Shown: positions 38,115 to 44,077 of the stretch, in pieces
How positions within the stretch are numbered: position 1 is the first letter of the stretch
How the letters are laid out: the number at the start of each line of letters is the position of its first letter
Assembly (NCBI GenBank): GCA_965249745.1
Contig: OZ252252.1
Coordinates: 1,533,146 to 1,597,145, forward strand
DNA length: 64,000 nt
Direction of reading: 5' to 3'
DNA from: Deinococcales bacterium
GTDB lineage: Bacteria > Deinococcota > Deinococci > Deinococcales > JAAFIG01
The notes under the pieces: generated by a model
Told to the model about the DNA's origin: nothing
Databases searched by the model: none
The model's input: only the letters and a program-made list of their open reading frames with translations
Made by a program: the position numbers and the translations under genes

Positions 38115-38984
38115 TCAGGGGGCGGTCGTGAAGAAGCCCTTGGTCGAGGGCTGCGTGCCGCACGCACCAAAGGTGATCTCCAAATACGAGTTCGCGTTCG
38201 CGCCGTTCAGGAAGGCGCGCAGTTTGCCACCGACGATCTTCAGCGGATCGGTGCAGCTCGGATCGTATTGCAGCGGGGTGAAGGTGGCCACCGCGAAGCT
38301 GCGGTTGACGCCCGCCTTGTTGAAGCTGTAATTGCCAGCCAAGTTAATGCTGCCAGCGGGCAGCGGTGCACCCATTGCGATCGAACCGGGCGTGGTCGCG
38401 TTGAAGGTCAGATTCCAGAGGTTGGTGATCGTCGCGGTTGGCTCCGTGCCGACCGTGCGGGTCAGAGTGATGTTGTGACTTTGCGTGACCTGGTCGCCAG
38501 TCTTGCGCGGACTGCGGGTCCCAGTTAACACCTCGGTCACGGTTACACCCGTGGATTTGTTGGTGACGGTGTGCGTCAAGTTCGAGGTGCTATCGAAGCC
38601 CCACAGTGCGCCCACGGGATCGGAGACCTGAAGCGTTCCAGTTGTACTATACGCGAACTGCGGCTTGTCCAAAGTGCAATTGAAGGTGTACGTGGCGTTA
38701 TCTGGCACGCCGTCGCCGTCCGTGTCCACGATGGGACTCGGGTTGATGGTGATGCAGGCGCGCCCCGCTTGGGCGTTCAGCCCGCTGCTGAGGCTAAGCG
38801 TCTGCAACCCAGACTCGAGGGTCAAGGTGGCCGCCGAAGACGCGGCCGAATCACTGATCGAATCACCGATTGCCTGGGTTTCCGCTGCCGTCGGCGGGGT
38901 GCTGGTCTGCTGGGTCGTTTGGTTGCAGGCGGCGAACAGACTCGCTACCGCCAGCGCCGTTGTGAGCTTCAACAGTGTTTTCAT
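38115..38984 (-). CDS. Secreted lipoprotein with DxDxDG Ca-binding-like motif (paralog of 39178..40065)
   Basis: ATG 38984 with AAGAGG RBS. Lipoprotein signal MKTLLKLTTALAVASLFAAC. Contains DTDGDGVPDN and LQYDPSCT...FGACGTQP, shared with the neighbouring paralog. Confidence 0.65.
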   Translation of the reverse strand: MKTLLKLTTALAVASLFAACNQTTQQTSTPPTAAETQAIGDSISDSAASSAATLTLESGLQTLSLSSGLNAQAGRACITINPSPIVDTDGDGVPDNATYTFNCTLDKPQFAYSTTGTLQVSDPVGALWGFDSTSNLTHTVTNKSTGVTVTEVLTGTRSPRKTGDQVTQSHNITLTRTVGTEPTATITNLWNLTFNATTPGSIAMGAPLPAGSINLAGNYSFNKAGVNRSFAVATFTPLQYDPSCTDPLKIVGGKLRAFLNGANANSYLEITFGACGTQPSTKGFFTTAP

Positions 38985-39080
38985 TGGAACCTCTTTCTGC
39001 GCCCCTGGTGTCCCCAGTCGGCGCGTTTCGCTCGAGGAACAGTTTGTTCTCTCGGGTGACATCAATCTAGAAAACGGGTC

Positions 39081-39131
39081 GTTCCAAGGGCGTTCCAAAC
39101 CCTGAGCCAGACGGCTCATAAAGCGTTCCAA
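39081..39131 (-). promoter_or_regulatory. Three in-phase GTTCCAA heptamer direct repeats (11-bp periodicity) upstream of lipoprotein gene 38115..38984: candidate SARP/AfsR-type activator boxes
   Basis: GTTCCAA at 39081, 39092 and 39125 (offsets 11 and 33 bp). Same orientation as site 40300..40317. Confidence 0.5.
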
Positions 39132-43600: not shown

Positions 43601-43883
43601 CATCTACGATTACGTCAGGCGACAATTCTAGACTGCTCGAGCTAACGGTGAGCGCCTCCCGCAGCGGGGTTTCACGCAATCGGAAGACCTCTTTGCGAAG
43701 GTTGGTGCGGGCCGCATCCTCGGACATCTCCGACCACAACGCGTTCGCCAGCACGCCTCGAGCGGTCTGTCCTTCCAATGCCAGATACGCCAGCAGCGCG
43801 AGCGCCTTGCGCGTGGCGAGCGCCAACTCCTGACCGTCGCACAGCACGACGGGCGTTCCCAGCAGACGCAACTCGAGGGTCAT
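40644..43883 (-). CDS. AfsR/SARP-family large regulator: OmpR-type winged helix + BTAD, NB-ARC/AAA ATPase, C-terminal TPR repeats
   Basis: N-terminus LELRLLGTPVVLCDGQELALATRKALALLAYLAL...LWSEMSEDAARTNLRKEVFRLRE (OmpR/PhoB wHTH + BTAD). Walker A LNLILGEVGVGKTRL. Long TPR-like C-terminus. ATG 43883; the track's upstream extension to 43964 is possible. Confidence 0.8.
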   Translation of the reverse strand: MTLELRLLGTPVVLCDGQELALATRKALALLAYLALEGQTARGVLANALWSEMSEDAARTNLRKEVFRLRETPLREALTVSSSSLELSPDVIVDAKRFLALGAANDEAALELYSGALLEGVELNGAAGFEAWLDGQRERLQETCDRLLRGRATRLEMLGDLRGALSAQRTLLATDELRESQHREVMRLHWQLGERAAALEQFDALAELLSRELGLTPLPETLALLAKIQRGGPDESTAPEPARSKAPNLSHPPLIGRESAWQWLESRGAGLNLILGEVGVGKTRLCEDALEPVLTLRGFESASATPLYPVAEALRAALPRLQSLDDLWRLEVARLLPELLRPGERESVGQNDDGRARFLEGLTKGLQLSLPPGGALLLDDLHWFDASSLEFVAHLVRRAPELRVVATARSLELSENAAAQNVLNALEREGLIARLTLNPLGEAQTLSLLQALSGGAARLFARRLQNATGGNPLFALETLRGLFESGALHTDADGSWVTPFDNDTEDYTELPIPPNVLELALGRVTHLGGAVRRLLEVAVLSGEPFEADDLMPATALSDWEGLEALERALGGQVVRHEGQAYRFSHDVLRQSLLNQLSLERQRLIHRRLADSLGKRDAAPARVAQHLELGGRELEAAPWHLSAARQAQTVYAHQDARRHYGRALELTRDPRVAFRTHAALAELELTLLQLDALEAHSQSMLEIAEGLSDATLTTEARLMRAKARLYRGQYKDALEEARVTAESATGDLLPEALAILGTALIGCGQLQEAEPHLQRVLQTAKPRSPLIGETHAILKELYRQQGDLARALEQAELARDAHKALGKLESELTMQAQVGQILGLLGRSEEALERLRDSADEARAMGFERVLTVSLLLSAEAQTRAGLWDEAESTALEGLSLTESKVLARECQFVGILARIQQYTGRLDAAIETSKKALELSKKLKLPIQSALANFTLIDIYLETGNESLTQIPLKELDDLILNYSQVAFILPLETRLAQLDLLRGEPENAILRLEKISQKVSNVLNEYEIQLQVTLAEAYAKVERPNSALKILETLPLSYSWLEKRIKRLWDSLEADSQTERRP

Positions 43884-44077
43884 CGGTGATCCAACCGAGC
43901 TTACTACTGCGCTGCCTCGGTGCGGGTCTGCCAGGGCGATCACCTCCCTTGGATTCGGGGTCAACGGCTCCAGTTCCCAGTTCGTGAGACTCGAGGCTTG
44001 GGAAACTCAAGTTTGGAAGGCTCGAGACGAAAAGAGCGGGCGCGAGGATTTCTTCGCGCCCGCCCAAACCCAGACCT

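Follow-up and report, generated by a model that had tools for sequence, protein, structure and literature searches.

A predicted four-gene SARP-type module with 11-bp-phased TTGGAAC repeats in a Deinococcota-affiliated genome

The 64,000-bp stretch analysed here (the window) covers positions 1,533,146 to 1,597,145 of contig OZ252252.1 from a Deinococcales bacterium (assembly GCA_965249745.1). It carries a module of four genes, all on the minus strand, namely a regulator gene, a gene for a 62-aa protein, and two lipoprotein genes designated lipoA and lipoB (Table 1). An initial annotation had described a regulator of the Streptomyces antibiotic regulatory protein (SARP) type, followed on the same strand by a 62-aa open reading frame (ORF) and two paralogous lipoproteins, and this arrangement was confirmed from the ORF list and the translations. 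The 1106-aa ORF assigned there to the regulator does exist (40644..43964); its likeliest product, however, is a 1079-aa protein starting at M28, because all regulator orthologues begin with MSLELRLLG in the alignment and the public gene call corresponds exactly to the 1079-aa product. A spacer of ~330 bp, which is specific to the window and ends in a strong hairpin, separates the regulator gene from promoter P1 of the small gene. This hairpin was not found in the orthologous loci, where the promoter repeats (boxes) described below abut the stop codon of the regulator gene. The lipoA gene starts 11 nt past the stop codon of the small gene, and this TAG is embedded in the TAGGAG Shine-Dalgarno sequence of lipoA. 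The terminator-like hairpin after lipoA, which has equivalents in three related contigs (L013, L014 and L016 in our numbering), is directly followed by the third box of promoter P2, which precedes lipoB.

Table 1. Coordinates of the module, its predicted control elements and other features of the window
Feature	Position	Strand	Remarks
Regulator coding sequence	40644..43883	-	1079 aa from ATG 43883 (M28); mechanical ORF to TTG 43964 (1106 aa)
OmpR-type winged helix-turn-helix (wHTH), aa 1 to ~90	43614..43883	-	AlphaFold2, Foldseek, clade alignment
BTAD, all-helical, aa ~94-230	43194..43604	-	Pfam PF03704, AlphaFold2 helices
AAA_16 P-loop ATPase, STAND-type switch	42681..43079	-	Pfam PF13191
TPR repeats, presumed sensor/interaction region	41070..41639	-	TPR_12, TPR_8, TPR_1, TPR_2
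20-bp-stem hairpin followed by GTTTT, likely terminator of regulator transcript	40318..40366	-	Fold -32.5 kcal/mol, z=-8.5
Promoter P1	40283..40317	-	TTGGAAC pair, N11, -10 TAACCT
Small gene, 62 aa	40076..40264	-	ATG start; first gene of P1 operon
lipoA	39178..40065	-	295 aa
Terminator-like hairpin 3' of lipoA	39132..39164	-	Fold -26.9 kcal/mol, z=-6.3
Promoter P2	39064..39131	-	Three TTGGAAC boxes, -10 TAGATT
lipoB leader	38985..39063	-	79 nt, with CCGAG...CTCGAG hairpin
lipoB	38115..38984	-	289 aa; exact public gene call of 289 aa
Intrinsic-terminator-like site closing the module	38068..38091	-
60-aa ORF in low-GC patch	40433..40615	+	Signal-peptide-like N-terminus (MKQIKRVGAVLAVVAFCVGLSG...); converges on regulator
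648-aa protein with eCIS_core	32532..34478	-	PF13699
OmpR-type response regulator, then HAMP-HisKA-HATPase histidine kinase	~54090..56015	+	Response regulator: MSATILIVEDES...
924-aa protein with G8 and CEMIP beta-helix domains	58673..61447	+

The N-terminal part of the regulator was identified by sequence profiles and by fold. The BTAD model PF03704 matched with E=5.4e-14 (53.2 bits against the Pfam cut-off of 22.1 bits), and this domain was found in every regulator orthologue. A profile of four orthologous N-termini matched the SARP chain of AfsR (8hvr_I) from residue 4 to 230, covering both wHTH and BTAD, with E=2.2e-6, and also matched EmbR at 6e-5. The AlphaFold2 model of residues 1-290, based on 63 homologues, reached a mean predicted local distance difference test score (pLDDT) of 91.2, with a pLDDT of 98 for residues 1-90, and displayed a beta-beta-alpha3-wing topology of the OmpR type followed by a helical bundle. 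A Foldseek search of the PDB returned six significant neighbours of this model, all of which were AfsR (8k60, 8hvr) or EmbR. The AfsR matches had E-values of 2.4e-11 to 1.7e-10 and template modelling (TM) scores up to 0.73 over ~250 columns at 28% identity, the EmbR matches had E-values of ~6e-9 to 1e-8, and the rest of the list consisted of generic TPR proteins at E>3e-3. The recognition helix, NLRKE[VL]FRLR[ED]T, is invariant in both clades of orthologues introduced below. The wHTH plus BTAD N-terminus proposed in the initial annotation was thus borne out by the BTAD match above its cut-off, by the AfsR profile match and by a predicted fold nearest to AfsR and EmbR; the wHTH is recognized at the level of fold rather than of the Pfam threshold, since its own model, Trans_reg_C, scored below that threshold. 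In line with this, sequence homologues are annotated as 'DNA-binding SARP family transcriptional activator', and one of them, from Deinococcus multiflagellatus, is named AfsR/SARP.

The central part of the regulator had been described as a Walker-A NB-ARC ATPase joined to TPR repeats. The Walker A motif and the TPR repeats are indeed present; the ATPase, however, is of the AAA_16 type (PF13191, E=3.6e-12), with Walker A GEVGVGKT and Walker B LLLDDLHW as read from the translation. NB-ARC (PF00931) gave no Pfam match in the regulator at E<=0.1 and was likewise absent from the precomputed Pfam annotations of the orthologues, and the NB-ARC label was rejected because Pfam gave AAA_16 only. Many regulator homologues carry PF00486, PF03704 and PF13191 together, and a minority of more distant ones carry PF00931, so that the AAA_16 and NB-ARC types are neighbours. 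Among the repeat models, TPR_12 matched the regulator with E=6.9e-10, in addition to TPR_8, TPR_1 and TPR_2; the orthologues displayed weak or faint TPR_MalT matches, and no LuxR domain was found in the regulator. Residues ~290-755, which comprise the ATPase and the arm, had no match at E<=1 among PDB sequences, and full-length AfsR structures aligned to the orthologue profile over the SARP domain only. Taken together, the regulator is a 'large SARP', with wHTH and BTAD assigned by sequence and fold, and a STAND-type AAA_16 ATPase and TPR repeats assigned by Pfam.

The heptamer GTTCCAA had been reported on the plus strand at 39081, 39092, 39125, 40300 and 40311. These five positions proved exact, with 11 bp between the members of each pair and a third box 33 bp from the P2 pair (spacings 11, 33 and 11 bp). 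The boxes do lie at the lipoprotein promoters in a common orientation as had been noted; the genes, however, are on the minus strand, and the box in gene orientation reads TTGGAAC. At P1, TTGGAAC (40317..40311), N4 and TTGGAAC (40306..40300) are followed by N11 and TAACCT (40288..40283), which is 18 nt from the ATG of the small gene. At P2, a TTGGAAC box (39131..39125) precedes the pair (39098..39092 and 39087..39081, with N4 between them), which is followed by N11 and TAGATT (39069..39064). The heptamer had been stated to be confined to these five positions within the window; this did not hold, as 16 copies of GTTCCAA/TTGGAAC were counted, 11 of them elsewhere than the five boxes, against 8.1 +/- 2.9 expected. 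It is the tandem arrangement that is unique: TGGAAC-N5-TGGAAC with at most one mismatch was found only at P1 and P2 within the window, and the composite TGGAAC-N5-TGGAAC-N11-TAnnnT occurred twice against 0.00 expected from 100 dinucleotide-preserving shuffles. Furthermore, a position weight matrix was derived from 16 orthologous promoters and scanned over both strands of the window (128 kb). The two sites scored 50.0 and 41.4 bits, the next best site 3.6 bits and the best site in shuffled windows 16.7 bits, and no further regulon member in the window rose above background. A consensus scan called no sigma-70 -35/-10 pair on the minus strand, and no -35 hexamer was found at P1 or P2, which have nothing in common except the boxes. 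Our literature search found no earlier description of a TTGGAAC direct-repeat operator.

Two other box-like sequences were observed near these promoters. At 38984..38990, the box stands in inverted form (GTTCCAA when read along the genes) and abuts the lipoB start in the context aggttccaATG; this copy also occurs at the lipoB start of the closest relative, L013, and not in the other relatives. Moreover, the perfect hairpin at 40318..40366 holds TTGGAAG, whose TGGAAG core is located 44 bp, or four helical turns, upstream of the TGGAAC core of the distal P1 box.

For lipoA, only 22 word-indexed homologues were found among 5.8 billion proteins, and comparison of the contigs encoding homologues gave a set of 12 distinct contigs including the window. 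The gene order regulator, 62-65-aa gene, lipoA and lipoB is whole in seven of them (the window, L014, L016, L019, L023, L024 and L025). The regulator gene is cut at the contig start in L021 and L022, and the contig ends just upstream of the small gene in L013 and L026, whereas L020 holds a solitary lipoB orthologue that keeps the boxes and reads TGGCAT at the -10 position. The regulator adjoins the module in 9 of the 12 contigs, wherever the contig reaches far enough upstream of it; L013 and L026 end too early, and in L020 there is no adjacent regulator. The regulator orthologues at the same position in L014, L016 and L019 are 47-67% identical to that of the window.

The composite [T/G]GGAAC-N5-[T/G]GGAAC-N11-TAnnnT was found at 24 promoters on the 12 contigs, before the small gene and before lipoB, and nowhere else in the related loci examined. 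The repeats are conserved upstream of the orthologous genes on all 12 contigs with the same geometry while the spacers have diverged, and the P1 geometry is identical at all 11 orthologous P1 promoters. Information content amounts to 1.2-2.0 bits at the boxes and at the T, A and T of the -10 element, and to ~0-0.5 bits in the spacers. Since boxes and -10 element are kept while the spacers diverge, the boxes represent a phylogenetic footprint and not residual identity. Two promoter classes can be distinguished. In the P1 class, two boxes are present and 18-21 nt lie between the -10 element and the start codon; in all 12 lipoB promoters, the pair is joined by a third box 22-23 or 32-33 bp upstream, corresponding to 2 or 3 helical turns and following immediately on the lipoA terminator hairpin, and most of the leaders are long, that of L020 being only ~24 nt.

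Four observations indicate that the boxes are functional and belong with the regulator. In a second clade (L019, L023, L024 and L026), the boxes read GGGAAC at unchanged spacings; the regulator of this clade is 47% identical in L019 and ~1200 aa long where complete. Although a thioesterase gene has been inserted between lipoA and lipoB in L026/L027, lipoB keeps its own three-box promoter there. The solitary lipoB of L020 retains its boxes, as mentioned above. In L014, a third box pair with identical geometry (6465..6498, minus strand) precedes a gene for a 515-aa secreted protein (4888..6435, minus strand), which is divergent from the regulator gene; this protein has no Pfam domain, and no homologue of it was found in the window or in the other loci. 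Moreover, the module resides in at least three genomic neighbourhoods, beside L32-FabH genes, acetyltransferase genes or a GntR-aminotransferase gene.

In the window, the repeat unit TTGGAACGnnn forms a 22-bp double repeat, which leaves 7 bp to TAnnnT, or 8 bp in a register moved by one position. With the -10 element taken as -12 to -7, the double repeat would lie at about -41 to -20. The boxes are not at -35 spacing, the proximal one being 12 nt and the distal one 23 nt from the -10 element. SARP operators follow the rule of direct repeats with 11- or 22-bp phasing and a 3' repeat located 8 bp from the -10 element (PMC10936776). The initiation complex of AfsR at afsS has two adjacent protomers bound to two 11-bp repeats from -40 to -19; they touch the first 8 bp of either repeat and take the place of -35 recognition (PMC10936776). 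Read from the sequence, the box geometry here deviates from that of the AfsR afs box by no more than one base pair, and the SARP-type site geometry proposed in the initial annotation agrees with this rule in both the 11-bp repeats and the 7-8 bp distance from the -10 element.

From the domain identities, the conservation of the sites and their geometry, we infer binding, activation and response to a signal, and consider it probable that the four genes constitute a self-contained SARP module in which the regulator activates P1 and P2 through the boxes. A signal sensed via the TPR/ATPase part would switch the regulator on, and two protomers would then occupy the two 11-bp direct repeats (TTGGAACGnnn twice, about -41 to -20) side by side. 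There they would stand in for -35 recognition and bring in RNA polymerase in the manner of the solved AfsR-afsS complex, by a class-II-like 'sigma adaptation'. P1 would thereby direct synthesis of the 62-aa protein and of translationally coupled lipoA, and P2, with its third in-phase box 33 bp upstream, that of lipoB. The predicted output is the induced production of two envelope lipoproteins with Ca-type loops and disulfides, and the small protein may, speculatively, feed back on the regulator in the way that AfsS influences AfsR.

Several points weigh against this interpretation. Trans_reg_C on the isolated N-terminus of the regulator reached only 12-15 bits against a cut-off of 26.2 bits. 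The -10 assignment, and hence the placement at -41 to -20, is deduced from the conserved TAnnnT, and activation rather than repression is suggested by the box position and the missing -35 element only. The T-to-G difference in the boxes between the two clades is unmatched in the recognition helix, which is identical, while the GGAAC core is invariant; protein-DNA covariation was considered as support and dropped, because the helix is identical across the TGGAAC and GGGAAC clades. In L020, the 10 kb to each side of a box-bearing lipoB contain no regulator gene, so the adjacency of regulator and boxes is not absolute. Finally, direct-repeat geometry fits any wHTH protein of the OmpR/PhoB type and not just SARPs. 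Such proteins bind 7-bp direct repeats with 11-bp phasing and replace the -35 element, and the boxes might accordingly be operators of a different OmpR/PhoB-family regulator encoded elsewhere, the SARP gene being linked for another reason. The geometry would be the same, L020 has boxes and no adjacent SARP, and an OmpR-type regulator with a histidine kinase lies 14 kb away at ~54.1-56.0 kb; no further wHTH protein of the kind that reads direct repeats was seen in the window. However, none of the 12 contigs has a response regulator next to the module, the SARP gene accompanies the boxes in at least three unrelated genomic contexts, and the extra box pair of L014 is found next to the SARP regulator and nowhere else. 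We regard this alternative as unlikely.

If the SARP does bind the boxes, it could still repress or fine-tune genes that are driven by a basal promoter. AfsR directly represses several genes in S. avermitilis (PMC10832544), and in most relatives P1 abuts the regulator stop codon with no terminator, so that read-through could supply expression. Against this, neither P1 nor P2 has a -35 element, neither box is at -35 spacing, the placement of the boxes is that of class-II/SARP activation, and in all lineages a terminator hairpin precedes the separate three-box promoter of lipoB, which makes repression or fine-tuning a still less probable explanation than a different wHTH regulator. GGAAC might alternatively be the -35 element of an ECF sigma promoter, with an incidental duplication. 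An 'AAC' -35 motif is typical of extracytoplasmic function (ECF) sigma promoters, which GGAAC resembles; the targets are envelope proteins, and in L020 the solitary lipoB has ECF sigma genes a few kb away. However, GGAAC is separated from TAnnnT by 11 nt (proximal box) or 22 nt (distal box), where an ECF promoter would have 16-17 nt, and no conserved CGT- or GTT-type -10 element was found at 16-17 nt. With the duplication taken as incidental, the strict 11-bp phasing, the repetition at 24 promoters and the third box at all 12 lipoB promoters would go unexplained. Both the ECF and the sigma-70 -35 readings of the box were rejected on account of the spacing, and we give an ECF promoter very little credence. 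As for chance matches or remnants of mobile repeats with no regulatory role, the bare heptamer is fairly common in the window, but the composite motif is expected zero times, only boxes and -10 element are kept across the 12 contigs, and P1 and P2 share nothing but boxes; this possibility appears negligible. An anti-phage STAND or defence-system reading was also rejected, as none of the four proteins had a PADLOC match.

Among known systems, AfsR-AfsS provides the closest counterpart to the activating SARP module proposed here. AfsR is the best structural match of the wHTH plus BTAD unit, and both regulators are ~1000 aa long, with an ATPase switch and C-terminal TPR repeats. A gene of ~63 codons lies immediately 3' of the regulator gene and is preceded by an operator in both systems (PMC10832544), and the operator consists of two 11-bp direct repeats at ~-40 to -20 that end ~8 bp from the -10 element (PMC10936776). 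In contrast, the ATPase here is AAA_16 and not NB-ARC, the central region does not match the AfsR structure in sequence, a Ser/Thr kinase partner is not evident, and the targets include lipoproteins and not antibiotic regulators, in a Deinococcota lineage.

The small protein also differs from AfsS. It has 22 homologues, all of 36-80 aa and encoded on the same contigs as lipoA. Across seven orthologues, 402, 247 and 751 differences were counted at codon positions 1, 2 and 3, with 418 synonymous codon changes; the concentration of differences at the third position indicates a real gene. The gene stands immediately 3' of the regulator gene in all contigs holding both, with the box pair in its promoter. 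Its product is predicted to be cytoplasmic, ends in an invariant ...RYLQALS...GLR C-terminus in the seven aligned sequences, and had no match in Pfam, NCBIfam, PADLOC or PDB sequences. AfsS contains 2-5 internal repeats, which are needed for AfsR binding, and raises the DNA affinity of AfsR (PMC10832544), whereas no internal repeats are visible in the seven aligned sequences of the small protein. Therefore, it was not filed as AfsS and is a positional analogue only, although by analogy it could still work like AfsS.

Both lipoproteins had been described as paralogues with DTDxDGVPD-type loops and conserved cysteines, and this description was corroborated. LipoA and lipoB share 28.5% identity over 214 aa (tblastn E=5e-15), and have in common an invariant lipobox Cys, three further conserved Cys and a D-x-D-x-D-G-V-P loop. 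The lipobox is FTSC in lipoA, with the loop in ETDTDADGVPDD, and FAAC in lipoB, with VDTDGDGVPDN. LipoA is laid out as lipobox, disordered linker and helix, and a large all-beta domain bearing the DxDxDGVPD loop and four conserved Cys. In the family alignment, D97, D99, V101 and P102 are invariant in 20 sequences, and the lipobox Cys ending the hydrophobic N-terminus, read directly from the sequence, is invariant in 20 of 20 aligned members. No match of TSP_3 or another Pfam model was obtained for the DxDxDG loop, which is a putative Ca-binding motif by sequence only; neither lipoA nor lipoB had anything meaningful in Pfam or NCBIfam, and ten diverse superfamily members were also devoid of Pfam matches.

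The lipoprotein family is large, with more than 600 clusters at 50% identity. In the DNA examined around distant relatives, which come from soil metagenomes and a Gemmatimonadales metagenome-assembled genome (MAG), no regulator, small ORF, boxes or recurring partner was found, and a scan of genome contigs for the family recovered only a distant Gemmatimonadales relative. This MAG (L018) carries two family copies (2082..2921 and 7719..8633) with identical N-termini, which flank a TetR-type regulator and an efflux-like operon, suggesting a recent duplication or a composite element.

The long lipoB leaders of the window and of L013, L014, L016, L019, L021 and L022 contain a CCGAGG...CCTCG-type hairpin soon after the predicted transcription start, and several also hold a second hairpin, CTGGnGACnCCAG. 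RNAalifold found 7 pairs in these leaders, 2 of them with compensatory changes, which is weak support, and the leader had no match in Rfam; a riboswitch or other known RNA was rejected on these grounds. The hairpin may act in post-transcriptional control, or it may simply follow from the CTCGAG excess described below.

Within the SARP family, the Streptomyces literature sets SARP-LAL proteins, with an LAL/guanylate-cyclase-type ATP-binding region, apart from the NB-ARC 'large SARPs' (PMC10972967). SanG and PolR of the SARP-LAL group use two heptamers overlapping the -35 element, and PimR uses three (PMC10972967). The present regulator resembles this group (PimR, SanG, PolR and FilR) in joining a SARP unit to a non-NB-ARC ATPase and in having two or three heptamers with 4-nt spacers. 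The AAA_16 P-loop, the DDLHW Walker B, the weak or faint TPR_MalT matches and the lack of a LuxR HTH would be compatible with a place in this group. In contrast, the heptamer sequence of SARP-LAL proteins is unrelated, and their genes belong to polyene and nucleoside antibiotic clusters of Streptomyces, whereas no biosynthetic genes are present here. Other likenesses are partial. The pho box of PhoB/OmpR proteins also has two 7-bp repeats with 11-bp phasing ~10 bp upstream of the -10 element, bound by head-to-tail wHTH domains; the present regulator differs in lacking a receiver domain, in the BTAD activation surface, and in a STAND ATPase switch in place of Asp phosphorylation. EmbR of Mycobacterium tuberculosis is the second-best structural match (E=6e-9), but is kinase-controlled and has a C-terminal FHA domain where the present regulator has AAA_16 and TPR. 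MalT/LAL-type STAND activators share the AAA_16-type P-loop and a helical-repeat sensor, so a ligand-gated, ATP-dependent logic may be expected; they carry a C-terminal LuxR HTH in contrast to the N-terminal SARP domain found here.

SARPs have been described as 'exclusively found in actinobacteria' (PMC10972967). The present module lies outside this range: ribosomal protein L32 of the window scored 100.9 bits against 1j5a/1nkw/5dm6 and 86.7 bits against the next group. L11 of the related contig L020 scored 253 bits against 1nkw/5dm6, 223 against 2e34 and 188 against 5o60. We take 1j5a, 1nkw and 5dm6 to be from Deinococcus radiodurans, 2e34 from Thermus thermophilus and 5o60 from Mycobacterium smegmatis. 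In addition, syntenic contigs encode RecJ with a Deinococcus-type C-terminal domain, and the window encodes SurA-like and BamB-like proteins. On the basis of the L32 and L11 affinities and the RecJ domain, the lineage is Deinococcota-affiliated and not an actinomycete. The actinobacterial range is a habit of distribution and not a structural criterion for SARPs.

The mechanism is a known one; the operator is new, the lineage is unexpected, and the regulon is unusually well delimited. Work on SARP activators has been confined almost wholly to Streptomyces, and the module widens the known range of SARP regulation. It offers a computationally defined regulon with an operator, [T/G]GGAACG, in 11-bp phasing, two promoter classes with two and three boxes, and minimal targets. 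As a simple system, it would lend itself to studying -35 replacement by SARP domains outside Actinobacteria, the signals read by AAA_16/TPR sensors, and a small co-transcribed protein as a general partner of large SARPs. It also gives a first regulatory entry point to a lipoprotein family that comprises several hundred clusters and lacks annotation, and the motif is directly usable for scanning the 5.1-Mb source genome and its relatives. A broader scenario, which we put forward as a long shot, would combine these elements: a portable circuit of SARP and small partner might be ancient and predate its use in Streptomyces antibiotic control. In such a circuit, the 62-aa protein, unrelated in sequence to AfsS, would bind the TPR region and feed back in an AfsS-like manner, and the original job would have been to switch on Ca-stabilised, beta-barrel-like envelope lipoproteins with a fold not in the PDB.

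The DNA around the module has several peculiarities. The palindrome CTCGAG is hyper-abundant: the 64 kb contain 287 sites (4.5 per kb), whereas dinucleotide shuffles give an expectation of 27.9, and none of them was as high; sites lie, for example, at 38097, 38814, 39031, 39203, 39516, 39858 and 40087. The next most enriched 6-bp palindrome reached only 1.8x, and CCCGGG (46 expected), CAGCTG (21) and ACTAGT (9) have zero occurrences in the window. The excess is common to all module-bearing contigs (loci L013-L027; 4.3-8.6 per kb), whereas distant lipoprotein loci have <=1.5 per kb. Sites fall in every reading frame (59/21/12 in 15 genes), and of 126 Leu-Glu dicodons, 59 are CTCGAG. By analogy, it resembles a 'highly iterated palindrome' such as cyanobacterial HIP1; our literature search found no description of CTCGAG hyper-abundance.

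A low-GC patch at 40320..41200 (30-49% per 100 bp against ~60% for the window) spans the last ~180 regulator codons, whose GC is 0.38-0.39 against 0.63-0.70 upstream, and the spacer before P1. Within the patch, amino-acid identity to the regulator orthologues drops from ~0.7 to 0.18-0.26, and 1 CTCGAG was found against ~5 expected. The low GC, the drop in identity and the CTCGAG deficit suggest that the C-terminal sensor end and the spacer may have been replaced by foreign DNA. The 60-aa plus-strand ORF in this patch has no homologue in any related locus examined and nothing meaningful in Pfam or NCBIfam.

Among neighbouring genes, a 4HBT/DUF4442 thioesterase gene recurs beside the module in L014 (12010..12432), L016 (12049..12441), L021 (3504..3950), L025 (6893..7324) and L026 (1429..1959), the L026/L027 copy being the one between lipoA and lipoB. 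At this position, the window has a 158-aa ORF and an erythromycin-esterase gene instead. With fabH as a further neighbour, the thioesterase may point to a link with lipids or acyl-CoA. Farther away, the window encodes the eCIS_core protein and the G8-CEMIP protein listed in Table 1, the latter with a domain pair better known from eukaryotic proteins.

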